A stretch of DNA of 24,000 nt from Methanoculleus caldifontis (GCF_032842345.1 NZ_WBKO01000002.1:58208-82207); one strand, 5' to 3'; counted from the first letter of the stretch, positions 7,375 through 22,504 are shown. Program-made: numbers and translations. Notes: a model not told the origin generated them from the letters alone.

Positions 7375-7382
7375 AGACCGGC

Positions 7383-8351
7383 CTACCGGGGGAGGTCCAG
7401 CATCCGCCGGATCGCCGTCCGCGCCCGGGCGGCGGTATCCTCCGGGACCGTCACCCGCGGCTCACACCGTTCGAGGGCTGCAAGCACCTTCGCGAGATCG
7501 GTCTTTTTCATGTTGACGCAGACCGCCCGGCTCGAGAGAGGGAAGAAGACCTTTTCCGGGCACTGTTTTTTGAGCTGGTGGAGGAGCCCTGCCTCGGTGC
7601 CGATGACGAACTCCCGGCAGGGGCTCGCACAGGCGTGCCGCACCATTCCCGAGGTCGAGAAGACGCGATCGGCGCGGTCGATCACCTCGGGCCGGCACTC
7701 GGGATGAACGAGCACCTCGGCGTCCGGGTGGGCACGGCGGGCTTCCTCCACGTCCCCGGTTGTCATCCGGTCGTGGACGATGCAATAGCCGTCCCAGGGG
7801 AGGATCTCTTTTTCGGTGAACCGGGCGACGTAGCGGCCGAGGTTCCGGTCGGGAAGGAAGATAACCTGCTCCGCCGCGAGCGACTCGACGACGGCGACGG
7901 CGTTTGCGGAGGTGCAGCAGATATCGCTCTCCGCCTTCACTTCGGCGGAGGTGTTGACGTAGGCAACCACGGCGGCTTTTGGGAACCGCTCGCGGAGAAC
8001 CCGGACCTCGCCGGGGACGACCATCTCCGCCATCGGACAGCAGGCGTCGGCCGCGGGCAGGACGACCGTCTTCTCCGGCGAGAGGATCGCCGCCGTCTCG
8101 GCCATGAAGTCGACGCCGCAGAAGACGATGACGTCGGCATCGACCTTCGCCGCCGCTTGTGCGAGTTCGAGCGAGTCCCCGACGAGGTCGGCGACCTCCT
8201 GCACCGTCGGGATCTGGTAGTTGTGGGCGAGGATGACGGCGCCGCGCTCCTCTTTCAACGCGGCTATCCGTTCGACGAGGGTTTGGGCGGGACTTGAAGA
8301 TGGGATGGTATCACAACCTCTCTTTGCAGTCGACGATGCGGTCCTGTCCAT
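7383..8351 (-). CDS. nadA: Quinolinate synthase ([4Fe-4S] enzyme)
   Basis: AVILAHNYQ, VADLVGDSLELA, FCGVDFMAETA, CCPMAEM, VHPEC. I prefer ATG 8351 because GTG 8372 would abut the palindrome at 8373. Confidence 0.9.
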   Translation of the reverse strand: MDRTASSTAKRGCDTIPSSSPAQTLVERIAALKEERGAVILAHNYQIPTVQEVADLVGDSLELAQAAAKVDADVIVFCGVDFMAETAAILSPEKTVVLPAADACCPMAEMVVPGEVRVLRERFPKAAVVAYVNTSAEVKAESDICCTSANAVAVVESLAAEQVIFLPDRNLGRYVARFTEKEILPWDGYCIVHDRMTTGDVEEARRAHPDAEVLVHPECRPEVIDRADRVFSTSGMVRHACASPCREFVIGTEAGLLHQLKKQCPEKVFFPLSSRAVCVNMKKTDLAKVLAALERCEPRVTVPEDTAARARTAIRRMLDLPR

Positions 8352-8372
8352 AACTGTTATCCCTGTGCGCAC

Positions 8373-8386
8373 TTAACAATTGTTAA
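8373..8386. promoter_or_regulatory. Perfect palindrome TTAACAATTGTTAA, copy 1 (candidate operator / promoter element)
   Basis: Read directly; lies in the nadA / 8430-ORF divergent gap. The centre is 28.5 nt from nadA ATG 8351 and 50.5 nt from ATG 8430. Identical copies at 9825 and 16410. Confidence 0.6.
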
Positions 8387-8429
8387 TACGTGATCCGGCC
8401 CGGGTTGCCGGACTTACAGGGACGATCCC

Positions 8430-8777
8430 ATGGCGCGAATCTTATCTGAACGGGACGTGACGATCCTGAAGAGATCTGCCCCGGAATGCCTGGGGCTGGT
8501 CTGCGCGGGTTCAGGAGGGCCATACCGGTCCATCCTCCCCCCGCTTGCGAACCACTACGCGACGGACGCAGAGGATTTCCGGAAGCGGCTGGAACGGCTG
8601 AACGATGACGACCTCCGTTACCTCGTAGGACTGATACTGGACGGGAGCGAGAGCCTCGGCTGCGTTCCTCCCGAGCATATTGAGGTCTTCCTCACCTTCG
8701 TCGATGACCGGCTCGGCCGGGACGCCGCCCTCGCGATCCTGCAGTATTACGAGAGGGAGGACGGGTGCGCCCGGTGA
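8430..8777 (+). CDS. Hypothetical 115-aa protein with four Cys, no family recognised
   Basis: ATG-initiated ORF with balanced composition (MARILSERDVTILKRSAPECLGLVCAGSGG...). Convergent with the radical-SAM gene, 9-nt spacer. Palindrome copy 1 lies ~50 nt upstream. Confidence 0.55.
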   Translation: MARILSERDVTILKRSAPECLGLVCAGSGGPYRSILPPLANHYATDAEDFRKRLERLNDDDLRYLVGLILDGSESLGCVPPEHIEVFLTFVDDRLGRDAALAILQYYEREDGCAR

Positions 8778-8786
8778 GCCCCTGCC

Positions 8787-9779
8787 TCAGACATCCCGGA
8801 ATGGGGTGAGGTCGCACCCGGTGCAGGGGAGGCACATCGTCCTCGCCCGCCGGGGGTCAAGGTCGTGTCGTTCCAGTGTCTCGCGGGTCATCGCCGCGAG
8901 GCGGAGGAGCCGCTCCGGCGACGGGCGCTCGACGGCGATCTCCCCCGCCCGGAGGGGCGATGCGGAGATCGGCCGGAGGATGGGAATGACGCCTATCCTC
9001 GCAAGAAGGGCGACGCCGTCTCTGATCGTTTCGTCGTCTTCGCCGAGGCCGATGATGAAGTTCGAGAAGACGGCGTTCCTCCCGAAGACCTCCACCGCCC
9101 CTGCGAGCGCATTGAGGATGAACGGAAGGGAGAGGCCGGGGCAGACCCGCGCGAAGATTGCCGGGTCCATCGTCTCGACGTTGTACTTGATCTCATCGGC
9201 ACCGGCGGCGCGGAGGATCGCGGTCGAGTCCGCGGTCGGATAGACCGAGACCCCGATCGGGAGATCGAACCGCGCCCGGAGCGCCCTCACCACGGCGGCC
9301 ATCCGCTCCACCTCCTGCTCCGGCGATCCGGCGACGCCGCTCGTGAGGGAGATCGCAGAGAGGCTCCCGCTGGCGGCAGCCTCCTCGACCATCCTGACGA
9401 CCGTCTCCGTGTCCTTGATCGCCCCGTCGAGCTTCGGCACCGGGCAGAACTTGCAGTCGTAGATGCAGCGCTCGCTGACGGTGATGTAGGCCTGTTCCGG
9501 GCAGTGACAGAGCGAGCGCTCGAGCCTGCCCCGCACGATCGTCTCCCCATTCCGGACAATGGCGATCCCATCCCTGTCCGGGACGACCCGGAGCGGCGAT
9601 GCGGGGTTGACGGAGAGGCGGACCCGCCGGCCGCCGGAGCGGATGAAGACCGACGACCCTCCGGCGCCGGGACCCGCCGTCGCCGTTGTCGGCAGGAAAT
9701 CTGCGCTTAGCGCCTCGTCGATGCTCGCCGACCCTATGCTGATGAGATACGCCTTCTCCTCGGGTGTCATGGTACGCAT
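8787..9779 (-). CDS. Radical SAM enzyme, biotin/lipoyl-synthase-related type with an extra C-terminal Cys cluster
   Basis: CIYDCKFCPVP (CxxxCxxC) radical-SAM motif in a TIM-barrel-like core (ISLTSGVAG...IKYNVETMD...NFIIGLGEDD). C-terminal CLPCTGC. ~95-aa N-terminal extension. RBS GGGAGGAG lies 9 nt before ATG 9779. Confidence 0.8.
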   Translation of the reverse strand: MRTMTPEEKAYLISIGSASIDEALSADFLPTTATAGPGAGGSSVFIRSGGRRVRLSVNPASPLRVVPDRDGIAIVRNGETIVRGRLERSLCHCPEQAYITVSERCIYDCKFCPVPKLDGAIKDTETVVRMVEEAAASGSLSAISLTSGVAGSPEQEVERMAAVVRALRARFDLPIGVSVYPTADSTAILRAAGADEIKYNVETMDPAIFARVCPGLSLPFILNALAGAVEVFGRNAVFSNFIIGLGEDDETIRDGVALLARIGVIPILRPISASPLRAGEIAVERPSPERLLRLAAMTRETLERHDLDPRRARTMCLPCTGCDLTPFRDV

Positions 9780-9824
9780 GAATTCAGCTCCTCCCTCTCG
9801 TTGTCGTGGCTGCCGGGACGGAAG

Positions 9825-9838
9825 TTAACAATTGTTAA
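9825..9838. promoter_or_regulatory. Perfect palindrome TTAACAATTGTTAA, copy 2
   Basis: Read directly; the centre is 52.5 nt upstream of radical-SAM ATG 9779. In the other direction a TATA-like ATATATTA lies at ~9867-9874, upstream of the thiS-like gene. Confidence 0.6.
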
Positions 9839-9955
9839 TCAGACTTATGGGTATCGCCAGGGATCCATATATTACTTGTCGTTGCGGCCGAATCTGCCGC
9901 ATTCCGGTTCTGCAGGACATTTATGGGGTGGCGGGACCAATGCTCTGGGACAGGT

Positions 9956-10150
9956 ATGCAGATCATCCTCCCGGACAGGAGCGTGCGGACGCTTTCCTGC
10001 GCCTCCGCGCCGATAGAAGAGATCCTCCTTGAGCTCGGCATCAACCCGGCGACCGTGATCGTCGTGAAGAACGGCAGGATCGTCCCCGAGGACGTGACGG
10101 CGGAAGAGGGCGACGAGCTCCGGATCCTCCGGTTCTCGCACGGCGGGTGA
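9956..10150 (+). CDS. ThiS/MoaD-family ubiquitin-like sulfur carrier (64 aa, C-terminal Gly-Gly)
   Basis: MQIILPDRSVRTL...VKNGRIVPEDVTAEEGDELRILRFSHGG-stop: beta-grasp length and pattern with terminal GG. I prefer ATG 9956; the N-terminal 11 aa added by the ORF-track start 9923 look non-native. Confidence 0.7.
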   Translation: MQIILPDRSVRTLSCASAPIEEILLELGINPATVIVVKNGRIVPEDVTAEEGDELRILRFSHGG

Positions 10151-10154
10151 ACCG

Positions 10155-11072
10155 GTGACTTCGGCGGAGAACCGGTGCTCTCTCTGCGGCGAACCCGCGG
10201 TCGTCCGCCTCGCCGAGCCGGAGCGGCGGCTCTGCGCCGCCCACTTCATCGAGGACGCCGGGGCCCGCGTCTTCGCCGCCGTGAAGCACGAATGCATGAT
10301 ATCTTCGGGCGACCGGGTCGCCGTCGGCCTGAGCGGGGGGAAAGACAGCACCGCCCTGCTCCTGCTGCTCCACCCCATCCTCCCCGCACTCGGCGCGAGT
10401 CTCATTGCGGTCACCATCGACGAAGGGATCGCGGGCTACCGGGAGGAGACCCTCAAGGCCGCAGAATCCCTGACAGACGAACTCGGCGTCGAGCATGCGA
10501 TCGTCACGTTTACCGACCTCTTCGGGGACGATCTCGACAGGCTGCTCGTCGGAAGAGAACCGCAGGGCTGCACCGTCTGCGGCGTGCTGCGCAGGCGGGC
10601 GCTCGTCGAGGGGGTAAAGAGGGTCGGCGCGACGAAGCTTGCCACCGGCCATAACCTCGACGACGAGGCGCAGTCGGTCCTGATGAACGTCCTCCGCGGC
10701 GACCTCCCCCGCCTCCTCCAGGACACCTCAGCCGGCTATCCGGGTCACTTCGTCCCGCGGATAAAGCCGCTTGCCGTCCTCTCCGAGAAAGAGATCGTGA
10801 CCTACCTCCTCCTCCGCAGCTATTTCCGTGACCTGCCCGAGTGCCCCTACGCCGGGACCGCGCTCCGGTCGGAGGTGCGATCGATGCTTGCCGGGCTCGA
10901 GCACCGCCACCCGGGGACGATGCTCCGCCTGATGCGGTTCCGCGATGGGGTCAGGCGTTCGGCCTGCCCTGCGGAGCCGGCGAAGGCGCTCTCTACCTGC
11001 CGGATCTGCGGCGAACTTGCGAGCGGCGAGGTTTGCCAGGTCTGCAGGCTGCTCGGGCGGGACGGAAAGTAG
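10155..11072 (+). CDS. TtuA/Ncs6(Ctu1)-type tRNA 2-thiolation PP-loop ATPase
   Basis: N-terminal Zn finger CSLCGEP...LCAAH, PP-loop VGLSGGKDSTALL, cluster ligands GCTVCGVLRR and PECPY, KLATGHNLDDEAQ, C-terminal Zn finger CRICGELASGEVCQVC. GTG start lies 4 nt after the carrier gene. Confidence 0.85.
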   Translation: MTSAENRCSLCGEPAVVRLAEPERRLCAAHFIEDAGARVFAAVKHECMISSGDRVAVGLSGGKDSTALLLLLHPILPALGASLIAVTIDEGIAGYREETLKAAESLTDELGVEHAIVTFTDLFGDDLDRLLVGREPQGCTVCGVLRRRALVEGVKRVGATKLATGHNLDDEAQSVLMNVLRGDLPRLLQDTSAGYPGHFVPRIKPLAVLSEKEIVTYLLLRSYFRDLPECPYAGTALRSEVRSMLAGLEHRHPGTMLRLMRFRDGVRRSACPAEPAKALSTCRICGELASGEVCQVCRLLGRDGK

Positions 11073-11078: not shown

Positions 11079-11390
11079 TCACCGGTCGCCGCCGCAGCAG
11101 GACCCCTCATCTCCCCCGCAGCCGCAGGTGCCGCTGTCCATCTCCTTACCCCGGAGGGCCGCCCCGATCATCGCCCAGGCGCACCCGACCCCGCTCTGGA
11201 CCTCGATGGCCTGCACCGGGCAATTCCTGGCGCACGCCCCGCACTCCATGCACTCCTCCGGCCGGACGACCTCGACCCGCCGGTTCCCCTCTGCAAAGAC
11301 CCCGTGCGGGCAGACCTCGGTGCACCGCAGGCAGCCGAAACACCGCTCCGGGTTGTAGCGGAGGGTGTTCTCGCGGTAGGAGTCAAACAT
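11079..11390 (-). CDS. hgcB: HgcB, 2x[4Fe-4S] ferredoxin of the mercury methylation pair
   Basis: Last 103 codons of listed ORF 11079-12416. CFGCLRCTEVCP and CMECGACARNCP ferredoxin motifs plus the C-terminal Cys-rich tail (GTCGCGGDEGSCCGG). Its ATG shares one base with the hgcA TGA (TGATG). Confidence 0.85.
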   Translation of the reverse strand: MFDSYRENTLRYNPERCFGCLRCTEVCPHGVFAEGNRRVEVVRPEECMECGACARNCPVQAIEVQSGVGCAWAMIGAALRGKEMDSGTCGCGGDEGSCCGGDR

Positions 11391-12436
11391 CAGACCGCCC
11401 CCAGAAGGCGGGCCACCCCGAGGACGGCGGCAAGGACGGCTCCCAGGACCGCCATCCCGGCCATGAACGGCACGTAGCGGAAGATCTCCTTCTTCACGCC
11501 GGTCCGCGACGTGAACGGGGTCGAACCGGTGAAGTTGAGCGCGAGGTACGCGGTCACGGGGGGCATGAGGAGGAGAGGTGCGAGCGCGGCAGGGACGCCT
11601 GCCCACCCGGACGCGGCAGTCTCCATGAAGAAGGTGGCCGAGAAGGGAAGAGCGACGATTCCGCCCAGAATGAGCCCTTTCGTGCTGAAGTCCCGGGTGG
11701 GGATGAACGGCAACAGGGCCGGGAAGAGCACCGTTCCGGCAAGGACCGCGGAGATTGCCCCGAGCGCTGCCGGCAGGCCTGCAAGGAGGTAAAGGACGAT
11801 CGCGCCTGCAGCGGTCGGAAGCGCGGCGTGGACGAGCTCCATCGGCGCGAGCACGAGCCGGTCGACGACCGGGAAGCGGACGCGCCGCATATCGGGCGTC
11901 GCTCGCCCGATGGCGAGATACTCCGGGAGGTCGCTTGCCCGCACGGGCCCGTACTCCACGCTGAATCCCGAACGCCGCAGCACTTCGTGGGCAGAGACGC
12001 CCGGGGCGCCGAGCTGCGGGACGATGAGCGTCCGGTGCCGCACGACGGACGCGAGACCCGTGAGCGCTATCCTCCGGACGATCTCGTCGGTGCCGAAGGT
12101 CCCCTTCCCTGCAGCGCACCAGACGTTGATCCCGTGCGTGTCGAGCACAAGGATGTAGCCGTCGTGGCCGGAGAGGGCGGACCGGAGCGCATCGAAACTC
12201 AAGGTGTAGTTTGAGGAGGCAAAGACCGGCGAGTCGGGCGTGGGGTTCCCGAGCCGGTAGAGCCCGGGCTCCACGCGGTGCCCCATCCGATTTACTCCCC
12301 AGCGCGCGAGGAAGTGATCGAGGTGGTTGGCGGGCGTGATCCTGCTGTCTGTCGTTCGGATCTCCTGCACCGGTTCGGCGGCCGGCTGAACGGTCTCCGG
12401 ACAGGACCGGCAGCACGACTGCGGCGGGGATGCCAT
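11390..12436 (-). CDS. hgcA: HgcA, corrinoid protein of mercury methylation (N-terminal CFeSP-like domain + C-terminal membrane domain)
   Basis: Diagnostic cap-helix motif GINVWCAAGKGTFGT. Upstream VEPGLYRLGNPTPDSPVFASSNYTLSFDALR. C-terminal ~4-5 hydrophobic helices. I prefer ATG 12436 (GGAG upstream); ATG 12454 is an alternative. Confidence 0.9.
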   Translation of the reverse strand: MASPPQSCCRSCPETVQPAAEPVQEIRTTDSRITPANHLDHFLARWGVNRMGHRVEPGLYRLGNPTPDSPVFASSNYTLSFDALRSALSGHDGYILVLDTHGINVWCAAGKGTFGTDEIVRRIALTGLASVVRHRTLIVPQLGAPGVSAHEVLRRSGFSVEYGPVRASDLPEYLAIGRATPDMRRVRFPVVDRLVLAPMELVHAALPTAAGAIVLYLLAGLPAALGAISAVLAGTVLFPALLPFIPTRDFSTKGLILGGIVALPFSATFFMETAASGWAGVPAALAPLLLMPPVTAYLALNFTGSTPFTSRTGVKKEIFRYVPFMAGMAVLGAVLAAVLGVARLLGAV

Positions 12437-12440
12437 GACC

Positions 12441-12743
12441 TCACTCCGCCTCATCGATCAGCGGCCCGAGGACGCTCTTGACCATCCCGCTGAGGCTCCC
12501 GGCCTTCATCAGCGCAAGGCAGCAGACCTCGCCGTCCCGCTCCCAGGTGATCAGCGCCAGCTTGTCGCCCGGTCGGATCCCTGCCTTTTCCCGCACGTCT
12601 TTCGGCAGGACCATCTGCCCGCGTTCGTCCACGCTGAGCACCGCCTCCACGCTGCAGACGGCAACCTGGTTGCACCCGCACGGCGTTCCGCCGGGCGGGC
12701 ACCGTTCCGGATTGGTGTTCTCTTCTGCCATAGTGTTCTTCAT
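12441..12743 (-). CDS. AbrB/SpoVT-type (looped-hinge helix) DNA-binding protein with an N-terminal Cys-rich motif
   Basis: GQMVLPKDVREKAGIRPGDKLAL is a typical SpoVT/AbrB core. N-terminal CPPGGTPCGCNQVAVC and a later CC pair. ATG 12743 lies ~25 nt downstream of a TATA-like CTATAAAT (12771-12764, minus), which implies a leaderless mRNA. The stop lies 4 nt before hgcA ATG 12436. Confidence 0.7.
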   Translation of the reverse strand: MKNTMAEENTNPERCPPGGTPCGCNQVAVCSVEAVLSVDERGQMVLPKDVREKAGIRPGDKLALITWERDGEVCCLALMKAGSLSGMVKSVLGPLIDEAE

Positions 12744-12780
12744 ACTATGGTTGAGAGGGGAGGATTTATAGTTATCCAAA

Positions 12781-12800
12781 TTTTCAGATTAATCTGAAAA
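12781..12800. promoter_or_regulatory. Perfect 20-bp palindrome TTTTCAGATTAATCTGAAAA upstream of the AbrB-like/hgcAB promoter
   Basis: Read directly. It lies ~10 nt upstream of the TATA-like element and ~47 nt upstream of ATG 12743. It could instead (or also) be an AU-rich terminator hairpin for the upstream RNA. Confidence 0.5.
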
Positions 12801-12815
12801 TTCAAAATTTTTGTT

Positions 12816-13265
12816 GTGATCCCCGAAGCCCGGTTCCGGTGGCTGTCGAGAAGGCGGCGCCGCAGCTCCCCGGTAGAGGGCTGCAGAGCAGGTAATTTAG
12901 CCCTGTTGAAATGCTCCAAATAACCTCTGGATAGCATGAGTACCAATAGGGGCTGGCGGTGTGGCCTCGCGCGAAGCGAGTTTGAGCACCGTCAGGTGTG
13001 AGTCGCGAAGTCTGGATGGGTATTGATAGTCTCCTTCGCGTTCGTCGCGGCTTCGCGTGGGGTAGCTGGTGCAGATGGCGATACAGCCTCACGCGAAGAG
13101 CGCGAAGCCGCGAAGTGCGATGGTCCGAAGGGCCGGAGCTCGAGCACCGTTAGGTGCGAAGTGCGAGCGTAAGCGAGCTTGAGAGGCCTCAAGGCTTCGA
13201 AGGGAAGTCAAGCGGTTTGACCTCCAGAGGGGCTTCCTCGGAACTTTAGCGAAGTACCGGGTCAC
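12816..13265 (-). ncRNA. Large structured RNA candidate with RNase P RNA-like architecture (assignment tentative)
   Basis: A ~450-nt stretch with no credible ORF in an otherwise packed region. On the minus strand: terminal helix GUGA-CCC (13265-13259) with GGG-A-UCAC (12824-12816). Hairpin 13258-13240, then GAGGAAGCCCC (13239-13229), whose GAAGCCC pairs with GGGCUUC (12831-12825) inside ACCGGAACCGGGCUUC (compare CR-V ACAGAACCCGGCUUA). CCUCUGG (13230-13224) pairs with CCAGAGG (12930-12924). GGAGCA...AGGGCUAAAU lies at 12917-12891. A 9-bp hairpin at 13225-13203 has a G.U on minus that would be A.C on plus. U-runs follow the 3' end. The canonical GGAAAGUCC with bulged U is not cleanly present. 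Confidence 0.4.
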
Positions 13266-14041
13266 TCGCCGGCGGACGGCGGCGAAGCGCCGCGGACCCG
13301 CCCCCACCCGGTATAGACGTTCATCTTTTTGCTCCGCACGAACCCGATAACGGTGAGCCCGCCTGCCTCCGCGGCCTCGACGGCGGTGGTGGTCGTCGCC
13401 CCCCGCGAGACGATCACCGGGATGTTCGCCACCAGGCACTTCCTGACCATCTCGGAGGATATCCGGCCGGAGCTGACCGCAAACGTCCGTGAAAAGTCGA
13501 TCCCTTCGAGGAGGCCGTGGCCGACGACCCGGTCGAGGGCGTTGTGCCGACCGATATCCTCGGCGATCCGGATTGCCTTCCCTTCTCCCTCGAAGAGCCC
13601 GACGAGGTGGATGCCGCCGGTGATCCGGTGCAGATCCGAGTCGAGCGTCTCTTTCGTCGCCGCCCGGATCGCCTCGGGCGCGAGGACGAGGTCGGACCGG
13701 ATCGCGGGGAGCCGTCCGGTATCAAGGAACGAGGTGCTCCCGCCGCACCCGGAGAGGACGGTCTTGTGCGAGGTCAGGATCGCGAACGGGTTCTTCGTGA
13801 GGACGCTCGCGGTGTTCCCCTCGATGCGGATCGACTCGATCTCGCGGAGTTCCTTGACGATCCGCTCCGTGTAGAGGAACCCCACGACGAACTCCCGGAG
13901 CATCGCCGGGCTCGTCATGGCGGTGAGGGCGTGGCGCCCGTTGACGGTCACGGAGAGGGGCATCTCCTCCACGACAGGGTGGGTTGCGGGAACGAACGTC
14001 TCCCCGTCGCCTTTGACGATCGGCAGTTCCCGGTAGAGCAT
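13262..14041 (-). CDS. fdhD: FdhD-family sulfurtransferase (sulfuration of Mo/W-bisPGD cofactor)
   Basis: Last 259 codons of listed ORF 13262-14617. VLSGCGGS, ITGGIHLVGLF, EDIGRHNALDRVVG (family signature), SGRISSEMVRKC. Its ATG 14041 shares one base with the upstream TGA (TGATG). Confidence 0.85.
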   Translation of the reverse strand: MLYRELPIVKGDGETFVPATHPVVEEMPLSVTVNGRHALTAMTSPAMLREFVVGFLYTERIVKELREIESIRIEGNTASVLTKNPFAILTSHKTVLSGCGGSTSFLDTGRLPAIRSDLVLAPEAIRAATKETLDSDLHRITGGIHLVGLFEGEGKAIRIAEDIGRHNALDRVVGHGLLEGIDFSRTFAVSSGRISSEMVRKCLVANIPVIVSRGATTTTAVEAAEAGGLTVIGFVRSKKMNVYTGWGRVRGASPPSAGE

Positions 14042-15225
14042 CAGGTCGCCCTCCGGGATATCTCTTCGACGGTGGCTATCATTGTGTCGACTTCCTCTGC
14101 TGTGGTATAGATGTAGGTGCTCGCCCGCACCGTTCCGTCCGGGAGGCCGATATGCTCCATGAGCGGCTGGCAGCAGTGGTGTCCCGACCGGACCAGGACG
14201 GCCGCGGCCTCGTCGAGGACCTGCGCCGCCTCGTGCGGGTGCATCCCTTCGACCGTGAACGAGACGACCCCGATCCGTTCGCCGGACGCATCCGGTCCCG
14301 CGACCGTGACGCCGTCGAGCGCGGCAAGCCCGTCGATCAGCCGGGCAGCGAGCCGCTCCTCGTGCCGCCGCACCGTCTCCATCCCGATCTCCCGGAGATA
14401 CGCCGCCGCCCGTGCAAGCCCTATGACGCCGGCGATCGGGGGCGTTCCCGCCTCGTAGCGCTGCTCGCCGGGAGCGAGGATATAGCCTTCGGCCGTCGCG
14501 CTCTCGACCGACCCGCCCCCGACGAAGAGCGGTTCGAGGTCCGGCCGGCGCATCCAGAGCGCGCCCGTCCCGGTCGGGCCGAGCATCTTGTGGCCCGAGA
14601 AGCAGAAATAGTCGCACCCGATGGCGGCGACGTCGACCGGGAGATGCGGAGCCGACTGGGCGCCGTCGACGAGGAGCCGCGCACCCCGGTCGCGGCAGAT
14701 CCCGGCGATCTCGCGGACGGGAAGGACGGTGCCGAGGACGTTTGAAGCGTGGGTGACGGCGACGAGCCGGGTATCGTCGCGGATGGCCGCCTCCAGGTCG
14801 GCGAGGTCGAGGCAGCCCTCAGAGTCCGGCCGGACGATATCCACCGCGACCCCCCGCTCGCGGAGCCGGAGCCAGGGGAGGAGGTTTGAGTGGTGTTCGA
14901 GGAGCGTTGTCACCACCCGGTCGCCCCGCTGCCAGGCGAGACCGGCGGCGACCGCTCCTATCGCCTCGGTGGTGTTCCGGGTGACGGCAAGGGCGCCCCC
15001 GTCCCCGCCGACGAACGACCGGACGGCGTCGCGGGCGTCCCGGTAGCGGTGGGTGGCGACGACGGCGAGCCGGTGCATCCCCCTCCCGACGTTTGCCCGG
15101 TACCGGAGGTCGTACTCGACCATCGCCTGGACCACCGGTTTCGGGGTGAGCGACGTCGCCGCGCTGTCCAGGTAGATGAGGTCCCGGGTGATCGGGAAAT
15201 CCGTCCTGCAGTCCTCGATCTTCAT
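14041..15225 (-). CDS. Cysteine desulfurase, group II (SufS/CsdA-like)
   Basis: IYLDSAATS, PLP-Lys FSGHKMLGPTGTGALWMRR, active-site RSGHHCCQPLM. Its ATG overlaps the larE-like stop (ATGA). Confidence 0.85.
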   Translation of the reverse strand: MKIEDCRTDFPITRDLIYLDSAATSLTPKPVVQAMVEYDLRYRANVGRGMHRLAVVATHRYRDARDAVRSFVGGDGGALAVTRNTTEAIGAVAAGLAWQRGDRVVTTLLEHHSNLLPWLRLRERGVAVDIVRPDSEGCLDLADLEAAIRDDTRLVAVTHASNVLGTVLPVREIAGICRDRGARLLVDGAQSAPHLPVDVAAIGCDYFCFSGHKMLGPTGTGALWMRRPDLEPLFVGGGSVESATAEGYILAPGEQRYEAGTPPIAGVIGLARAAAYLREIGMETVRRHEERLAARLIDGLAALDGVTVAGPDASGERIGVVSFTVEGMHPHEAAQVLDEAAAVLVRSGHHCCQPLMEHIGLPDGTVRASTYIYTTAEEVDTMIATVEEISRRAT

Positions 15226-16028
15226 AATACCTCGTCCATGCTCCCGCTTCGGTATCCGGCGAGGTCCAGGGCGACATAGGCAAAGCCGATCCCCCGGAAC
15301 GCGGCCATGACCTTGTCTCGCACGCTAAAGAGGGATTCCAGTTTGTCGGGAGGCACCTCTATCCGGGCGACATCGCCGTGCACCCGGACCCGCACCTGCA
15401 CCTGAGCGAATCCCAGGCCCTGCAGGGCCTCCTCGGCCGCCTCGATCCGGGCGAGCGCCTCCTCTGTGATCTCGTCCCCGTAGGGGATGCGGGTTGCGAG
15501 GCAGGCTGCCGAAGGCTTGTTCCAGAACGGGAACCCACACTCGCGTGCGATCCTGCGGACGTCGCCCTTCGCCGCACCCGCCTCGACAAGGGGGTGGCAG
15601 ACCCCTTCCTCGTCGCTTGCAGCAAGCCCCGGGCGGTACGTGCCGAGGTCGGAGACGTTCGTTCCGTCTGCAACCGTGTCGATCCCCCCCCGGCGGGCCA
15701 GTTCCTTCAGCAGGAGGGAGGATGCTTTTTTGCAGGCGTAGCACCGGTCGGGCCGGTTCGCCCGGAAGGTCTCGTCCCGGAGGATCGGGAACGCCACGAC
15801 CTCCAGGGGGAGGTCCAGCCGGGTAGCGGTCTCCCGCGCCTCCCGCACCGCCTGCCGGGGCAGGAGCGGCGAGTCCAGGAGGACGCACCGGACCCGCTCC
15901 TTTCCGAGCGCCCGGACGGCCAGGGCGGCGAGGAGCGAGCTGTCGACGCCCCCTGAGTAGGCGACCAGCATGGGCCCTTTCGCCTTGAGGCTCCTGGCGA
16001 TCGCCTCACCGCTGCTCTCTGGTTCCAC
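15222..16028 (-). CDS. LarE-like PP-loop ATP-dependent sulfur transferase (three-Cys type)
   Basis: PP-loop VAYSGGVDSSLLA. YRPGL, WNKPSAACLATRIPYG, VRVRVHGDVARIEV, LDLAGYRSGSMD align by eye along the length of Lactobacillus LarE. CYACKK plus the AACLATR Cys give a possible 3-Cys cluster site. Confidence 0.8.
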   Translation of the reverse strand: MEPESSGEAIARSLKAKGPMLVAYSGGVDSSLLAALAVRALGKERVRCVLLDSPLLPRQAVREARETATRLDLPLEVVAFPILRDETFRANRPDRCYACKKASSLLLKELARRGGIDTVADGTNVSDLGTYRPGLAASDEEGVCHPLVEAGAAKGDVRRIARECGFPFWNKPSAACLATRIPYGDEITEEALARIEAAEEALQGLGFAQVQVRVRVHGDVARIEVPPDKLESLFSVRDKVMAAFRGIGFAYVALDLAGYRSGSMDEVL

Positions 16029-16040
16029 CGGCCCCTCTCC

Positions 16041-16367
16041 TCACGCTTCCGTGTCGCACGACCCGCCGAGCTGGTTCTCTTCGCGGATCTGCGTGCAGAT
16101 CTCACATATCCGGGAGGCGAGGTCGTCTACCCGGCCGGCCTGGAGGTCCTGTGCAAGCCGGCTGAGCGACTCTTTCACCTCGCCCTCAAAGACAATCCGG
16201 TACCCACGTTTCCCGGTGCGGTACTGCGAGATCGCCGACGGCGTCATATCGAGGAGGCGGGCGGCCTCCAGCTGGGAAACGCCCATGGCATTCAGTTCTT
16301 CAGCGATCGCAGCCCGGATCGCGGGCAACACGTTCCATACAATCAACTGGCAGGGGAGTTTCATCAT
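16041..16367 (-). CDS. Small XRE/Cro-type HTH transcription regulator with four Cys (candidate binder of the TTAACAATTGTTAA palindrome)
   Basis: HTH GVSQLEAARLLDMTPSAISQYRTGKRG. Cys at position 6 and in the C-terminal ICEICTQI...GGSCD. First gene of the larE-like/sufS-like/fdhD operon (12-nt gap). Palindrome copy 3 is centred 49.5 nt upstream of its ATG. Confidence 0.75.
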   Translation of the reverse strand: MMKLPCQLIVWNVLPAIRAAIAEELNAMGVSQLEAARLLDMTPSAISQYRTGKRGYRIVFEGEVKESLSRLAQDLQAGRVDDLASRICEICTQIREENQLGGSCDTEA

Positions 16368-16409: not shown

Positions 16410-16423
16410 TTAACAATTGTTAA
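16410..16423. promoter_or_regulatory. Perfect palindrome TTAACAATTGTTAA, copy 3
   Basis: Read directly, in the divergent gap between the regulator (ATG 16367) and iscS (ATG 16480). Directly followed by TATA-like TTTTATC (16424-16430) in the iscS direction. Confidence 0.65.
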
Positions 16424-16479
16424 TTTTATCTTCGGAGAACAAATACCTTTGTGCAGAGTAAGAGTGCGGTGTGAACGCC

Positions 16480-17664
16480 ATGGTTGACGGGAGATCGCGG
16501 CCGATCTACATGGACCATGCGGCGACGACGCCGGTACGGCCGGAGGTCGTCGAAGAGATGCTCCCCTGCTTCTTGGAACGGTTCGGTAATCCCTCCTCGA
16601 TCTACGCCCTCGCCCGTGAGGCGCAGGTGACGATGGAGAGGGCCCGGGGACGGGTGGCGGCGGCGATCGGGGCGAGCACGGATGAGATTTTCTTCACCTC
16701 CGGTGGGACCGAGGCCGATAACTGGGCGATCAAAGGGGTGGCGGCGGCGAACCGGAAGAAGGGCGATCATATCGTCACCTCCGCGATCGAGCACCACGCG
16801 GTCCTCCACCCCTGCCAGGCCCTCGAGAAGCAGGGCTACCGGGTCACCTACCTCCCGGTCGACGAGTTCGGCCGGGTGGAGCCGGCATCGGTCGAGGAGG
16901 CGATCACGGAGAAGACCGTCCTCGTCTCGGTGATGGCCGCAAACAACGAGATCGGGACGATCCAGCCGGTCCGCGCGATCGCGGGAGTCACCCACGACCA
17001 TGGCATTCTCTTCCACACCGACGCCGTCCAGGCGATCGGGGCGATACCGATCGACGTGGATGCGCTCGGGATCGACCTCCTCTCGCTCTCGGCCCACAAG
17101 TTCGGCGGGCCGAAGGGGACGGGAGCGCTCTACATCCGGCGGGGGACCCGCGTAAAGCCGCTCATGGATGGCGGGGCGCAGGAGCGGGGCCGCCGGGCCG
17201 GGACCGAGAATGTCCCCGGGATCGTCGGGATGGGGAAGGCGATCGACCTTGCGGTCGCCGAGATGCCGCAGAAGTCCGCCTGGCTCGCCGCGATGCGGGA
17301 CCGGCTGATCCGGGGGATCCTGGATTCTATCCCGGATACCCGTCTGAACGGCCACCCGACCGAGCGGCTCGCAAACAACGTCAATATGGCGTTCCGCTAC
17401 GTCGAGGGGGAGTCGATCCTTCTCTCGCTCGACGCCCTCGGGATCGCGGGCTCGACGGGGAGCGCCTGCACCTCGGCGTCGCTCGAGCCCTCGCATGTCC
17501 TGACCGCCTGTGGCCTCCCACCCGAGCACGCCCACGGCTCGCTCCGCCTCACCCTCGGCTCCCGGAACACCGATGAGGACGTCGATTACGTTCTTTCCGC
17601 CCTCCCCCGGGTGATCGAGCGCCTGCGGGAGATGTCGCCGCTCAGCCCTAACGATAACGCGTGA
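16480..17664 (+). CDS. iscS: Cysteine desulfurase, group I (IscS/NifS)
   Basis: IYMDHAATTP, PLP-Lys LSAHKFGGPKGTGALYIRR, active-site loop STGSACTSASLEPSHVL. ATG 16480; the ORF track starts at GTG 16471. Confidence 0.9.
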   Translation: MVDGRSRPIYMDHAATTPVRPEVVEEMLPCFLERFGNPSSIYALAREAQVTMERARGRVAAAIGASTDEIFFTSGGTEADNWAIKGVAAANRKKGDHIVTSAIEHHAVLHPCQALEKQGYRVTYLPVDEFGRVEPASVEEAITEKTVLVSVMAANNEIGTIQPVRAIAGVTHDHGILFHTDAVQAIGAIPIDVDALGIDLLSLSAHKFGGPKGTGALYIRRGTRVKPLMDGGAQERGRRAGTENVPGIVGMGKAIDLAVAEMPQKSAWLAAMRDRLIRGILDSIPDTRLNGHPTERLANNVNMAFRYVEGESILLSLDALGIAGSTGSACTSASLEPSHVLTACGLPPEHAHGSLRLTLGSRNTDEDVDYVLSALPRVIERLREMSPLSPNDNA

Positions 17665-17669
17665 TCTCT

Positions 17670-18059
17670 ATGTACAGCGAACAAGTTATGGACCATTTCA
17701 TGAACCCCCGGAACATGGGGGAGATCCCGGATGCGGACGGTGTCGGCGAGGTCGGGAACCCGGCCTGCGGCGACATCATGCGGATAACTCTCCGGGTCGA
17801 AGAGGACAGGATTGTGGATGCAAAGTTCAAGACTTTCGGGTGCGCCGCCGCCATCGCGTCGAGCTCGATGGCCACCGAACTCATCAAGGGCAAAACCCTC
17901 GAAGAGGCGTGGGCGGTCACCAACCGGGCGGTTGCCGAGGCGCTGGAGGGGTTGCCTCCCCAGAAACTTCACTGCTCGGTCCTCGCCGAAGAGGGGATCC
18001 ACAAGGCGATCGACGACTACCGGGCGCGGCACGGAACACCGACCGCGAATGGAGGATAA
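17670..18059 (+). CDS. iscU: Fe-S cluster scaffold IscU/NifU-like
   Basis: VMDHFMNPRNMGE, GNPACGDIM, FKTFGCAAAIASSS, KLHCSVLAEE: the three cluster Cys in canonical context. ATG 17670. Confidence 0.9.
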   Translation: MYSEQVMDHFMNPRNMGEIPDADGVGEVGNPACGDIMRITLRVEEDRIVDAKFKTFGCAAAIASSSMATELIKGKTLEEAWAVTNRAVAEALEGLPPQKLHCSVLAEEGIHKAIDDYRARHGTPTANGG

Positions 18060-18063
18060 CGGT

Positions 18064-18798
18064 ATGCTCACCGAGCGGGAACAGGAGCGCTACGCCCGGC
18101 AGATCCTCCTCTTCGGCGAGGCGGGTCAAGAACGGCTGAAGAAGGCGAAGGTCTTCATCGCCGGGGCAGGGGGTCTCGGCTGCCCGATCGCCCTCTACCT
18201 TGCTGTCGCCGGTGTCGGGGAGATCCGCCTTGTGGACCGGGATACAGTGGACCGGACCAACCTGAACCGGCAGGTCCTCCACTGGGAGAGGGATCTCGGT
18301 ACCCCTAAGGCCGAATCGGCAGAGGCGAAACTCCGGGAGGCAAACCCGGATGTCCACATAGAGGCTCTGGAGGAGACCATCGACGAGGCGAACGTCCGGG
18401 ACCTGGTGGGTGATGCCGATCTGATCGTGGATGCGATGGACAACTTCCCGACCCGCTACCTCCTGAACCGGGAGGCGCTCCGGTCCGGCGTGCCGCTCAT
18501 CCACGGTGCAATCAGGGGATTCGACGGCCAGGCAACGACCCTCGTCCCCGGCCGGACTGCCTGCCTCGAGTGCCTCTTCCCGGAGGCCCCGCCCGGCGAG
18601 GTCTTCCCGGTCGTCGGAACTACACCGGGGATCATCGGCCTCATTCAGGCGAACGAGGCGATCAAGTATATCACCGGTGCCGGCGACCTTCTGCTGGACC
18701 GGCTCCTCATCTGGGACGGCCTTTCGACGACGCTTGAGACGTACGCCGTGGAGCGGCGGCCGGACTGCCCTGCCTGCGGTGAAGGGATGAGACCATGA
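18064..18798 (+). CDS. moeB: E1-like adenylyltransferase of the MoeB/ThiF/UbaA family
   Basis: RYARQILLFGEAGQERL, Rossmann FIAGAGGLGCP, DRDTVDRTNLNRQ, Zn motifs CLECLF and CPACG. Real gene is the 3' part of listed ORF 17812-18798. Confidence 0.85.
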   Translation: MLTEREQERYARQILLFGEAGQERLKKAKVFIAGAGGLGCPIALYLAVAGVGEIRLVDRDTVDRTNLNRQVLHWERDLGTPKAESAEAKLREANPDVHIEALEETIDEANVRDLVGDADLIVDAMDNFPTRYLLNREALRSGVPLIHGAIRGFDGQATTLVPGRTACLECLFPEAPPGEVFPVVGTTPGIIGLIQANEAIKYITGAGDLLLDRLLIWDGLSTTLETYAVERRPDCPACGEGMRP

Positions 18799-19073
18799 AG
18801 GTCCGGGTGAAGACGTTCGCCCGGTTCCGGGAGATCCTCGGCGGGGAGTCGACGCTTGATCTCCCCGATGGGGCAACGATGGCAGCGGTTCTCGCCGCGC
18901 TCCGTGGCCGTGCCGGGGACGAGAGCGATGCAATCTTCGATGAGACCGGGGCGCTCCGGGCGCATGTCATCCTGATGCGAAACGGGAAGCGGATCGGCAA
19001 AGCCGACCGCAATGCTCTCGTTCTTGCGGAGGGGGACGAGATCGCCCTCTTCCCGCCGGTCGCGGGCGGATGA
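18795..19073 (+). CDS. moaD: MoaD/ThiS-family sulfur carrier (92 aa, C-terminal Gly-Gly)
   Basis: MKVRVKTFARFREILG...EGDEIALFPPVAGG-stop. Its ATG overlaps the moeB TGA (ATGA), and its TGA overlaps the moaE ATG (ATGA). Confidence 0.75.
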   Translation: MKVRVKTFARFREILGGESTLDLPDGATMAAVLAALRGRAGDESDAIFDETGALRAHVILMRNGKRIGKADRNALVLAEGDEIALFPPVAGG

Positions 19074-19504
19074 GGGGGTATGAGGTTATGATCGGTATTA
19101 CCAGGGATGTCATCGACGCAGGCGCGATGATCGAGGCGGCGAAGAGACCGGGCATGGGAGCCCTGGTCACCTTCTGTGGTGTCGTCAGGGACGACGGCGG
19201 TATCGAGCGGATGGAACTGGAGGTCTACGAAGAGGTTGCGGTCCGCGAACTGGAACTGATCCGCGACGAGACAATGCGGGAATACCCGATCGAGTCGGTG
19301 GATATCGTCCACCGTGTCGGGTCTCTCCAGCTCGGCGAGACCATACTCCTCATCGTCGTCGGTGCCGGGCACCGGAAAGAGGCGTTTGAGGCCTGCGAGT
19401 ACATCCTCGAGCGAATCAAGGAGAGCGTGCCGATCTGGAAGAAGGAGATCGGGGAGGGCGGCGAGCGCTGGGTGCCGGGCGAGTCGTCCGGGGGCGACGC
19501 ATGA
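19070..19504 (+). CDS. moaE: Molybdopterin synthase catalytic subunit MoaE
   Basis: GALVTFCGVVRD, IVHRVGSLQLGETILLIVVGAGHRKEAFEACEYILERIKESVPIWKKE: the MoaE signature. ATG 19088 is a possible alternative start. Confidence 0.85.
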   Translation: MRGYEVMIGITRDVIDAGAMIEAAKRPGMGALVTFCGVVRDDGGIERMELEVYEEVAVRELELIRDETMREYPIESVDIVHRVGSLQLGETILLIVVGAGHRKEAFEACEYILERIKESVPIWKKEIGEGGERWVPGESSGGDA

Positions 19505-20715
19505 TCCGGCTGCAGTCCTGCCGCAAAGCCTACGCGAAGGAGACCCAGCGCACAGTCGCCCCGGAAGAGACACTGGAGCGGGCACGGGCAAAGCTCCCGG
19601 CCGCCGGGATCACCCGGATCGCCGATATCACGAATCTCGACCGGATCGGGATCCCAGTCTTCTCGAGCATCCGCCCGACCGCTGAGGCGGGGGCGATCTC
19701 GGTCTACAACGGCAAGGGCGCCACCCCGATCGAGGCGGAAGTCTCGGCGATGATGGAGGGGATCGAGCGCTACTCGGGCGAGATGGCCGACCGGGAGATC
19801 GTCACCGGGAGGTACAGCGAGGTCTCGGCCGAAAGAACCGCTCTCGACCCGGCGGACCTGATCCTCCCCGAGAGGGTCCCGGCCGATATGGTGGTCCCGT
19901 GGGTGGAGGGATATGATATCGTGCAGGGCGAGGAGGTGCTCGTCCCCGCCCACGCGGTCTTCCACCCCCTCCCGGTGACCTGCGGCCGCCTTTTCAGGAC
20001 CAACACCAACGGGCTCGCCTCCGGGAACACACTTGAGGAGGCGACGTTCCACGCCCTGATGGAGGTGGTCGAACGCGACGCCTGGTCGCTCGTCGAGGTG
20101 ACCAAAAAGACCGGGCCGCGGATCGAAGGGGTCACTGACGGGCTTGCGGCCGACCTGCTCGCGAAGTTCGCGGCCGCCGGGGTCGAGGTCACGCTCAGGG
20201 ATATCACGAGCGACACCGGGATCCCGACGGTGGCCGCGGTCGCCGACGACGTGGTGCTCAAAGACCCGACGCTCCTGACGATCGGGATGGGATCCCACAC
20301 GAGCGCCGGGATCGCCGTTCTCCGGGCACTCACGGAGGTCGCCCAGAGCCGGCTGACCCAGATCCACGGCGCCCGGGAGGACACCGATACGGCGGACGTC
20401 AGGAAGCGGATCGGTTACGAGCGGACGAAGCGGCTGAACCGGCACTGGTTCGCGGAGAACGGTTCGGTCGAGTTTGCGGCCATGCCGTCGTTTGACAGCG
20501 ATGATTTCCTCACCGACATCGATCGGGTCACCGGCCGGCTCGCAACATCCGGGCTCTCGCGGGCGATCGTGGTCGACCTGACCCGGCCGGAGATCGGCAT
20601 CCCGGTCGTCCGGGTGATCGTGCCGGGGTTGGAAGTCTACGCAATGGACCAGGACCGGATCGGGGGGAGGTGCCGTGACGCCCGGAATCGTCGTCTTCCT
20701 CGGTCCCAGCTGTGA
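19501..20715 (+). CDS. ycaO: YcaO-domain ATP-dependent amide-activating enzyme (methanogen McrA thioglycine type)
   Basis: ITNLDRIGIPVF, GKGATPIEAEVSAMMEGIERYS, TNGLASGNTLEEATFHALMEVVERDAW. Its ATG overlaps the moaE TGA (ATGA). Confidence 0.9.
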   Translation: MIRLQSCRKAYAKETQRTVAPEETLERARAKLPAAGITRIADITNLDRIGIPVFSSIRPTAEAGAISVYNGKGATPIEAEVSAMMEGIERYSGEMADREIVTGRYSEVSAERTALDPADLILPERVPADMVVPWVEGYDIVQGEEVLVPAHAVFHPLPVTCGRLFRTNTNGLASGNTLEEATFHALMEVVERDAWSLVEVTKKTGPRIEGVTDGLAADLLAKFAAAGVEVTLRDITSDTGIPTVAAVADDVVLKDPTLLTIGMGSHTSAGIAVLRALTEVAQSRLTQIHGAREDTDTADVRKRIGYERTKRLNRHWFAENGSVEFAAMPSFDSDDFLTDIDRVTGRLATSGLSRAIVVDLTRPEIGIPVVRVIVPGLEVYAMDQDRIGGRCRDARNRRLPRSQL

Positions 20716-21331
20716 CCTTGCCTCCGCCCGGGCGATCCTCGACGCCGAGTACCGTCCTCCGGCGAAGCGGGGAGATATAGCGGAGGCCGCAAGGGCCGGA
20801 GCCCGGATCGTCGGGCTCATCGACGGCGTCTTCTTCCAGGACTGCGCCGTCGCCCACCGGGAGGTCCTCGCCGCGCTCCGGGCCGGGGTGCGGGTCGTCG
20901 GCGCCTCCAGCATGGGAGCCCTCCGGGCCGCGGAGCTCGACAGCCTCGGGATGGAGGGCGTCGGCGAGATCTACCGGGCCTACCGGGAGGGGAGGCTCGT
21001 CGCCGACGACGAAGTGGCGCTCGTCTTCGACCCCGAGACCTTCGTCCCGCTCTCCGAGCCGCTCGTGAACATCCGGGCGACCCTGCAGGAGGCGCTCGCG
21101 CGGGGCGCGATCGGGGCCGGTGCGGCACGAGAACTTCTCAGTGCCGCACAGAGGCTCTACTTCCCCGAGAGGACCTACGATGCGATCGTCGAGGCCGCGG
21201 AGGGGACGGTGGACCCGGAGGACCTTGCCCGCTTCCTTGCGTTTGCCGGTGAGCATGCCGTCGACCGGAAGCGTGAGGACGCGCTGTCGGCGCTCAGGTA
21301 CATTCGCGAGCTTGCCGACAGCCTGCCGTGA
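20675..21331 (+). CDS. tfuA: TfuA-domain protein (YcaO partner for thioamidation)
   Basis: VVFLGPS...EYRPPAKRGDI, GLIDGVFFQDCAVAHREVL, VVGASSMGALRAAEL, EVALVF. GTG 20675 is preceded by GGAGGT and overlaps the ycaO 3' end by 41 nt. Confidence 0.85.
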   Translation: MTPGIVVFLGPSCDLASARAILDAEYRPPAKRGDIAEAARAGARIVGLIDGVFFQDCAVAHREVLAALRAGVRVVGASSMGALRAAELDSLGMEGVGEIYRAYREGRLVADDEVALVFDPETFVPLSEPLVNIRATLQEALARGAIGAGAARELLSAAQRLYFPERTYDAIVEAAEGTVDPEDLARFLAFAGEHAVDRKREDALSALRYIRELADSLP

Positions 21332-21352: not shown

Positions 21353-21750
21353 TGGTTCCACTGCAACCATCGTAGCAATACATCTCCGGCCGGACCGAGT
21401 TCTGTGTAGCGGTGCGGATTCATTCCCACCGCAGGGGGCAGCGCAATAACCGGAGCCGAAGCGGCTCTCCCTGCCCGCCGCACTTCCGGCACCTGCGGCG
21501 GACCCCGGGGAGCGCCCTCCGGCCGGAACCACACAGGCATGTACTCAGGCAGCTGCCCCGGATATCTGGTCCGGACAACATCAGAACGGCAGTGCCCGGT
21601 CAGCGGGTACCGCAGTCAACGGCCGGATCCGCCCCTGGGACGGGTCCGGCGGGGAGAAGATCGAGTGGCTCTCCTACAACCCACCTATCCTGACCCACCG
21701 CAATGATCTCCTCCGGGGCGGCACACACTCCGGGGGTTTCTCCCCGACTG

Positions 21751-22218: not shown

Positions 22219-22504
22219 GCTCGAAACACCTGCGGCCGTAAGCACACCCACGCGACAAGAAGGTTATGGTCCCGCCGCGGGTCGGGAGTCATGCCGTAGC
22301 GACCTGTGTTCGGCCGACCGGCGGAAAACCCGTCCTGAAAGATACCGGAGAGTCCGGTGCGTCGTAATGCAGGGGCCGGCGGCAGATGCAAAAAAAGTCT
22401 GTATAGAGGACGTGCAGTAGCGCACTGGAAGGGTATGGCGGACGCGGCGCAGGCAGGGTTCCATCGCGCACGACGCCTGGCCACGTACTAGTAAGAATCC
22501 CGCA

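Follow-up and report, generated by a model that had tools for sequence, protein, structure and literature searches.

Introduction

The described systems that come closest to the one reported here include some in which a cysteine desulfurase charges an enzyme of cofactor maturation with sulfur. In T. maritima the LarE protein binds a [4Fe-4S] cluster with a CxxC...C set of cysteines, the third of which lies one residue off the Cys176 of L. plantarum LarE (LpLarE), and it is recharged directly by the persulfide of the cysteine desulfurase IscS; the same work described the phosphate ligands of [4Fe-4S] LarE and is the source of the residue roles used below (PMC9283937). In the present study we analysed a stretch of 24,000 nt of Methanoculleus caldifontis (GCF_032842345.1 NZ_WBKO01000002.1:58208-82207; this whole stretch is called the window, and coordinates are counted from its first letter), in which genes for a LarE-type sulfur insertase, a SufS-like type II cysteine desulfurase and the sulfurtransferase FdhD follow a gene for a cysteine-containing helix-turn-helix (HTH) regulator (Table 1). 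The Methanoculleus LarE resembles the T. maritima protein in the SGGxDS PP-loop, the CxxC...C ligands, the shift of the third cysteine, the phosphate-binding Ser/Thr-Arg-Arg and, as we propose, in the use of cysteine desulfurase persulfide as sulfur source. The two cases differ in that the desulfurase genes of T. maritima are distant from larE, whereas the type II desulfurase of Methanoculleus is translationally coupled to LarE, and in that the archaeal clade of the latter has signature residues of its own (H145 and others) with no larB or larC nearby.

Of all solved proteins, the biochemically defined LarE of the L. plantarum larA-larB-larC-larD-larE operon for nickel-pincer cofactor synthesis matches best (167 bits, full length); nevertheless LpLarE sacrifices its Cys176 and holds no cluster, its larA, larB and larC partners are not present at the Methanoculleus locus, and its regulator is unrelated. 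The other half of the operon can be compared with the IscS-FdhD pair of E. coli, which serves the Mo-bis-pyranopterin guanine dinucleotide (bisPGD) cofactor of formate dehydrogenase: the Methanoculleus FdhD scores above the family cut-off, has an equivalent loop cysteine and is encoded next to a desulfurase, but it has one loop cysteine instead of a CxxC, its partner is SufS-like and not of the IscS type, and fdh genes are not adjacent. The TtuA-TtuB-TtuC system of Thermus thermophilus and the NcsA-SAMP2-UbaA system of Haloferax likewise employ PP-loop thiolases, fed by thiocarboxylate, whose [4Fe-4S] cluster is held by three cysteines, and the MoeB/UbaA-type E1 and ubiquitin-like sulfur carriers encoded alongside them are found in the Methanoculleus window as well; unlike those thiolases, LarE is devoid of tRNA-binding and zinc-finger modules and reaches a negligible 19 bits with the TtuA model. 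Finally, IscR and SufR offer a functional analogy for the regulator, being small cysteine-bearing DNA-binding proteins that head a cysteine desulfurase operon and use a palindromic site in a divergent promoter and at other Fe-S-related promoters. The analogy goes no further: no homology to Rrf2 or SufR and no fold match was found for the Methanoculleus regulator, which belongs to an archaeal family and is a candidate for cluster binding.

All four proteins are members of known families, and the LarE-desulfurase and FdhD-desulfurase pairings each have biochemical precedent. What the literature searched does not describe is the conserved tripartite module, the archaeal LarE clade unlinked to larB and larC, and the cysteine-rich HTH regulator with its operator and candidate regulon; the relevant co-mention of LarE and FdhD was just a listing among sulfur genes near Thi4, and no regulator of methanogen sulfur traffic was found in the searchable literature. 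In this article we propose that the four genes may form an autoregulated sulfur-supply operon within a larger sulfur/Fe-S regulon of Methanoculleus, a reading that in our judgement could fall either way.

Organization and conservation of the operon

The four open reading frames (ORFs) were found on the minus strand at the places where the first-pass annotation had seen four tightly coupled genes, and the couplings it had described could be read in the DNA (window G+C about 66%). On the reverse strand, 12 nt separate the TGA of the HTH gene from the GTG start of LarE (16028), the tetranucleotide ATGA (15225-15222) is common to the stop of LarE and the start of the SufS-like gene, and a TGATG is common to the stop of the SufS-like gene and the ATG of FdhD, the shared A being 14041. 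One gene caller took an internal ATG as the start of LarE (249 aa, P0001); since the N-terminal 19 residues are kept in the homologues of the alignment, the 268-aa form is preferred.

Table 1. Positions of the operon, its candidate operators and other features of the window.
Feature	Position	Strand	Remarks
HTH regulator	16367-16041	minus	108 aa, stop TGA 16043-16041
LarE, [4Fe-4S]-type PP-loop ATP-dependent sulfur insertase	16028-15222	minus	268 aa, GTG start
SufS-like type II pyridoxal phosphate (PLP) cysteine desulfurase	15225-14041	minus	394 aa
FdhD, sulfurtransferase for Mo/W-bisPGD enzymes	14041-13262	minus	259 aa
Palindrome TTAACAATTGTTAA, perfect 14-mer, candidate operator	16410-16423	.	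103-bp divergent intergenic region; 42 bp upstream of HTH ATG, 47 bp upstream of NifS GTG
Second identical palindrome	9825-9838	.	between radical S-adenosylmethionine (SAM) enzyme (start 9779, minus) and SAMP2 / NcsA-TtuA-like genes (from 9923, plus)
Third identical palindrome	8373-8386	.	21 bp upstream of NadA ATG (8351, minus; start as in the gene call on L082), 43 bp upstream of orf115 (8430, plus)
Divergent operon, common operator region	16471-21331	plus	NifS/IscS-type, NifU/IscU, MoeB/UbaA-type E1, SAMP1/MoaD, MoaE, YcaO, TfuA
Mercury-methylation set HgcA, HgcB, HgcC	11079-12779	minus	directly downstream of FdhD
CysE (242 bits) fused to C-terminal DUF59 / FeS_assembly_P (SufT-like) domain	6394-7374	plus	
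orf115	8430-8777	plus	115 aa, no Pfam/NCBIfam match
198-aa ORF	21703-22299	plus	no Pfam/NCBIfam match

In order to follow the arrangement in other organisms, a scan with the LarE alignment was run on one genome per species, which gave 80 loci, and the window proteins were mapped onto them. The gene order proved to be conserved in relatives: five or more orders of archaea have HTH-LarE-(SufS)-FdhD, and its overlaps of 4 nt and 1 nt are the same there. The complete HTH-LarE-SufS-FdhD set occurs in a second Methanoculleus and also in a Methanosarcina, ANME-1, Methanothrix/Methanosaeta and Syntrophoarchaeum; the HTH gene of the Methanosarcina locus is about 5 kb off, and some of the contigs stop short of this gene. 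A shorter form, HTH-LarE-FdhD without the SufS-like gene, occurs in Methanoregula and Methanolinea-type genomes, where in three of the Methanoregula-type loci (L008, L009, L011), and partly in a further one (L013), a divergent NifS-NifU-MoeB-MoaD-MoaE cluster stands on the other side. Methanosarcina, ANME-1, Methanothrix, Syntrophoarchaeum, Methanoregula and Methanolinea have LarE-SufS-FdhD or LarE-FdhD with junctions of 4, 1 or 0 nt, and spacings of -4, -1, 0 or a few bases are met repeatedly in distant lineages. The Methanohalophilus loci (L023 9264-13145 and L033) are different, the LarE of the clade being not with FdhD there and overlapping the 3' end of MoeB by 16 nt; the order in L033 is NifS-NifU-MoeB-LarE, and the next genes encode a CbiA/CfbB-family amidase and MoaA. 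None of the HTH, SufS or FdhD-type neighbours was seen at bacterial LarE loci, and in a neighbour-joining tree the archaeal LarE proteins with these neighbours form one clade, apart from the bacterial and the Methanoperedens LarE.

Sequence features of LarE, the desulfurase and FdhD

LarE is matched in full length by the NCBIfam model TIGR00268 (298.3 bits against a cut-off of 150, residues 8-264 of 268); in the PDB, the [4Fe-4S] LarE of Methanococcus maripaludis (8cnz) is a weaker match (85 bits) than LpLarE. In the PP-loop S25-G26-G27-V28-D29-S30 five residues (S25, G26, G27, D29 and S30) are invariant among 23 sequences, and so are C96, C99, C176, R180, R213 and R215 among 23 homologues. 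The CxxC...C set recognised by the first-pass annotation as like that of the cluster-dependent LarE subtype is confirmed as C96/C99/C176. The alignment to 5udq and 6b2o places the third cysteine one residue off LpLarE Cys176, and the phosphate-binding positions T179/R213/R215 correspond to S180/R212/R214 of LpLarE, T179 being a conservative replacement. Full-length identity to bacterial LarE linked to larB and larC amounts to 42-52%, and of 63 positions with a conservation of at least 90% in those bacterial proteins, the archaeal clade has the same residue at 53. The proposal that this LarE adenylates and thiolates a carboxylate other than the known one finds no support in these residues, since those contacting the substrate phosphate (T179/R213/R215) are kept.

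A tandem duplication of six nucleotides, CAGGTG CAGGTG (15393-15404, minus strand), was observed inside the LarE gene. It adds two residues (VQ) in front of the conserved VRVRVH strand, adjoining the phosphate-binding R213/R215, and is missing in all 22 aligned homologues. A role of the protein as tRNA thiolase was also considered, and was rejected on the grounds of the 19-bit score with the TtuA model and the lack of a zinc-finger or THUMP module.

The second protein belongs to the class V aminotransferases (Pfam Aminotran_5, 400.6 bits) and scores below the cut-offs of the SufS subfamily (399.6 against 475.1 bits for TIGR01979, 280.9 against 661 for PRK09295); because of the score under the TIGR01979 cut-off it is called here SufS-like and not canonical SufS. 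Its best PDB match is 5b7s, a solved cysteine desulfurase (374 bits), with which the PLP lysine (SGHK) and the catalytic cysteine (SGHHCC) align. Models of selenocysteine lyase, SepCysS and NifS all score under the SufS model and these identities were discarded. Type II desulfurases require an acceptor partner. No SufE or SufU gene is present in the operon, and the only scaffold in the window is of the NifU/IscU type, encoded in the divergent operon.

FdhD exceeds the cut-off of its family model (TIGR00129, 189.4 against 140.9 bits; Pfam FdhD-NarQ, 224.6 bits) and matches two solved relatives, 2pw9 with 83 bits and E. coli FdhD (4pde) with 74 bits. It has one cysteine in an SGCGG loop, aligned with the motif of 2pw9 and with the first cysteine of the E. 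coli GCGVCG, and the second loop cysteine of E. coli FdhD is missing.

The cysteine-rich regulator and its candidate operator

The first-pass annotation had placed a cysteine-containing HTH regulator at the head of the operon with a palindrome upstream, and both were found as described; that the one binds the other is a prediction we share. The regulator has a weak match to Pfam HTH_3 (24.9 bits) and none in NCBIfam. Its C6, C88 and C91 are invariant and C104 is present in most of the homologues (20 from the loci and 42 from databases). The AlphaFold2 (AF2) model contains five helices with a predicted local distance difference test (pLDDT) score of 79.7, the termini that bear C6 and C104 being disordered, and Foldseek returned no solved structural relative (no match at E < 0.8; generic HTH similarity only). 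The named relatives all come from Methanomicrobiales or Methanosarcinales and are annotated just as "transcriptional regulator". An exhaustive profile search extended the family to 1748 cluster representatives, 661 of them at E ≤ 1e-10; two could be traced to organisms, Methanonatronarchaeum and a Woesearchaeota archaeon. Compared with the Methanoculleus protein, most of the sampled members have two or three additional cysteines in the C-terminal part (C-x-[LM]-H...C-x-x-C), an excess suggesting that the metal or cluster site of the ancestral regulator was larger. The cysteines of the Methanoculleus regulator probably sense Fe-S or sulfur status.

In a Thermoprotei archaeon (L057 10001-11236) a gene for a distant member of the cysteine-rich HTH family (36% identity) is convergent to a LarE that does not belong to the methanogen clade; from this locus, the association of HTH and LarE may be older than the methanogen LarE clade.

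The palindrome between the HTH and NifS operons is repeated identically at two further places of the window. Three copies of the 14-mer stand against 0.04 expected, and none of 100 shuffles reached three. The divergent promoter regions that hold them are those of NadA/orf115, of radical SAM/SAMP2-NcsA and of the HTH operon/NifS operon. Most archaeal loci with an HTH gene have the core of the palindrome, TnACAATTGTnA, upstream of that gene, at a distance of about 20-90 bp (mostly 40-60 bp) and often as two copies about 27 bp apart; these loci belong to Methanoculleus, Methanocalculus, Methanoregula, Methanolinea, ANME-1, Methanotrichaceae and Methanohalophilus. Altogether 35 sites were detected in 16 of 203 scanned loci, all 16 archaeal (among them L003, L004 with 7 sites, L009, L012, L025, L026 and L033), and none in bacterial LarE loci or metagenomic LarB loci. 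The sites adjoin genes for HTH, NifS, MoeB/MoaD, NadA, SufS-like, CysK, CysE, MetX, O-acetylhomoserine sulfhydrylase-type enzyme (OAHS) and SepCysS. A palindrome that is conserved across orders beside Fe-S, molybdopterin, nicotinamide adenine dinucleotide (NAD), cysteine and methionine genes suggests, as a phylogenetic footprint, an archaeal sulfur/Fe-S regulon, at whose sites the regulator would bind and respond to its signal.

A model of sulfur supply and its alternatives

In the model that we propose, the SufS-like PLP enzyme would take sulfur from cysteine as an enzyme persulfide and hand it to the products of both flanking genes. LarE, the first client, would adenylate the carboxylates of pyridinium-3,5-biscarboxylate mononucleotide (P2CMN) and swap them for sulfide carried on the free iron of its cluster (the fifth sulfide). 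FdhD, the second client, would pass sulfur as loop-cysteine persulfide to the Mo/W-bisPGD cofactor of formate or formylmethanofuran dehydrogenases, and it may double as the acceptor partner of the type II desulfurase. The cysteine-rich HTH protein would bind TTAACAATTGTTAA at the promoters of its own operon, of nifS-nifU-moeB-moaD-moaE-ycaO-tfuA, of nadA and of the radical SAM and SAMP2-ncsA pair, and repress or tune them by cluster or sulfur status. The coupling of LarE to a desulfurase, which had appeared not understandable in the first-pass annotation, has a direct precedent in the recharging of T. maritima LarE by desulfurase persulfide (PMC9283937), a sulfur donor of this kind being required by LarE of the cluster type.

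Several points weigh against this model. Some concern the supply of sulfur and the FdhD branch: genes for formate dehydrogenase or another Mo/W-bisPGD enzyme were found neither in the 24-kb window nor in the contigs L082 and L083, methanogens often use free sulfide directly, and a dedicated SufS is not essential to the LarE-FdhD pair, as the Methanoregula-type loci without the SufS-like gene demonstrate. Others concern LarE itself. The recurring neighbours of LarE in the archaeal clade are molybdopterin genes (MoeB, MoaD, MoaE and FdhD, with MoaA in L023) and not lar genes; H145 is invariant in the clade where bacteria have a serine (92% conserved), and A60, S126 and D265 are also invariant residues specific to the clade. 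Furthermore, larB or larC lies within 10 kb of LarE in 0 of 27 archaeal clade loci against 24 of 44 bacterial ones (p = 3.6e-7), and, if only loci with at least 3 kb on both sides are counted, in 0 of 14 against 16 of 33 (p = 0.0016), both p-values being optimistic because the loci are phylogenetically related. In the bacterial loci LarB adjoins LarE in 25 cases and LarC in 18.

The search for larB and larC was extended in several directions, after the LarB and LarC families had been verified against the solved LarB and LarC in the PDB. By tblastn with 43 verified LarB/LarC sequences neither gene was found in the 24-kb window or in any of the archaeal loci, and the contig extended on both sides (L082, L083) brought neither to light. 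A LarB-block profile run against 5.8 billion proteins gave at least 8000 matches (204-208 bits), few of them named, those all bacterial or metagenomic, with no archaeon among the matches listed; a metagenome scan for the LarB motif NIDNGxGA in a high-GC codon pattern gave at least 120 stretches, and of those listed 116 had LarB and none had archaeal neighbours. The literature search, with several key papers outside its reach, returned no statement on larB or larC in methanogens. The existence of larB, larC or any nickel-pincer enzyme in Methanoculleus could not be demonstrated, which also weighs against a nickel-pincer role. The earlier description of this gene as an orphan LarE is correct insofar as larB and larC are not in the window; that absence does not suffice to make it an orphan, because in Haloferax larC is located apart from larB and larE. 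LarB/LarC/LarE trios are reported to be widespread in Euryarchaeota and may or may not extend to Methanomicrobia.

Since the archaeal clade is never linked to larB or larC in the loci, a different LarE acceptor has to be weighed. According to this alternative the archaeal LarE clade was repurposed and forms a thiocarboxylate by adenylation and cluster-bound sulfide on another acceptor, for which a molybdopterin or tungsten-cofactor intermediate or another nucleotide-like carboxylate are candidates, or else it helps to load or to use the MoaD/SAMP thiocarboxylate. The lack of larB and larC linkage speaks for it, and so do the monophyly of the clade apart from larBC-linked bacterial and Methanoperedens LarE, the clade-specific invariant residues, notably H145, and the persistent linkage to molybdenum cofactor genes, seen in the 16-nt MoeB overlap with MoaA downstream in Methanohalophilus and in the translational coupling of FdhD in many loci. 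Against it, the protein has kept the phosphate triad of the P2CMN site and 53 of the 63 conserved LarE positions, and its full-length identity to larBC-linked LarE is 42-52%. Additionally, the Haloferax larC stands apart from larB and larE, and the neighbours are equally well explained as co-users of one sulfur supply. A further point against repurposing is NadA, the first enzyme towards the nicotinic acid adenine dinucleotide (NaAD) precursor: its gene has the same operator and stands within 10 kb of LarE both in the window and in another 8 archaeal loci. On balance a repurposed LarE appears to us possible, if doubtful.

It could also be that there is no dedicated relay, and that the genes are adjacent only as members of a common regulon for enzymes that depend on sulfur and Fe-S. 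For their sulfur, LarE and FdhD would then draw on the neighbouring NifS/IscS, on free sulfide or, like TtuA with TtuB, on a SAMP/MoaD thiocarboxylate, and the SufS-like enzyme would serve general Fe-S or cofactor needs. The window being a sulfur island of about 22 kb, the presence of the operator at several unrelated promoters and the Methanoregula-type loci, which lack the SufS-like gene and still have LarE-FdhD beside a divergent NifS, are in favour of this explanation, as is the report that in many Methanomicrobia the iscS2-iscU2 genes of M. acetivorans have methionine and NAD genes as cluster neighbours (PMC7585200). Against it, the LarE-SufS (ATGA) and SufS-FdhD (TGATG, or 0 to -4 nt) overlaps recur in distant lineages, and recurring start/stop overlaps argue for stoichiometric co-production, not for loose co-regulation; moreover, in an operon without SufE or SufU gene FdhD or LarE are the obvious acceptors of the desulfurase. 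We regard mere co-regulation as unlikely.

A last and wider conjecture, that the LarE clade of Methanomicrobiales, Methanosarcinales, ANME-1 and Syntrophoarchaeum is a [4Fe-4S] thiocarboxylate-forming enzyme outside the nickel-pincer pathway, working in Mo/W-pterin or SAMP/MoaD chemistry with FdhD and a dedicated desulfurase under a cysteine-rich HTH master regulator of sulfur/Fe-S metabolism, seems improbable to us as a whole.

Genomic environment of the operon

The operon sits in a sulfur-metabolism island of about 22 kb (94-11072 and 16471-21331). In the order of the window the island consists of SepCysS, OAHS, MetX with CBS domains, DUF1890, DUF1894, ThiI, CysK, the CysE-DUF59 fusion, NadA, a radical SAM enzyme, SAMP2, an NcsA/TtuA-like thiolase, HgcB, HgcA, HgcC, the four-gene operon and then the divergent NifS operon. 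In the latter, the genes ycaO-tfuA for the McrA thioglycine are apparently in one operon with the molybdopterin synthase genes.

The members of the mercury-methylation set all score above the NCBIfam cut-offs (HgcA 448 bits, with the cap-helix motif NVWCAAGK; HgcB 118.6 bits; the AbrB-like HgcC, with a cysteine-rich stretch at its N-terminus, 126.5 bits), and hgcAB is thus placed within the sulfur-metabolism island. Between HgcC and FdhD, the roughly 480 bp of 12780-13261 yielded no convincing ORF, tRNA or Rfam match, and Rfam and tRNA scans of the whole window were without a match too.

Through the CysE-DUF59 fusion, cysteine synthesis is tied to Fe-S assembly; tblastn found a homologue of the fused protein in L025, and a similar fused ORF is present in M. 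palmolei (L004). In M. palmolei orf115, which in the window is 43 bp from an operator copy, also has a conserved counterpart beside NadA.

Conclusions

Sulfur delivery to Fe-S clusters, to molybdo- and tungstopterin, to tRNA and to the thioglycine of methyl-coenzyme M reductase is poorly understood in methanogens and methane-oxidising archaea. At the locus mapped here, the desulfurase is translationally coupled to two enzymes of cofactor maturation that accept sulfur, and the module so formed is conserved. The linkage of the archaeal LarE clade to molybdopterin genes would mean either nickel-pincer chemistry in methanogens or a new LarE substrate. The archaea-wide family of cysteine-rich HTH proteins, together with an operator of 14-16 bp, marks a candidate sulfur/Fe-S regulon which would also cover the genes of the McrA thioglycine.

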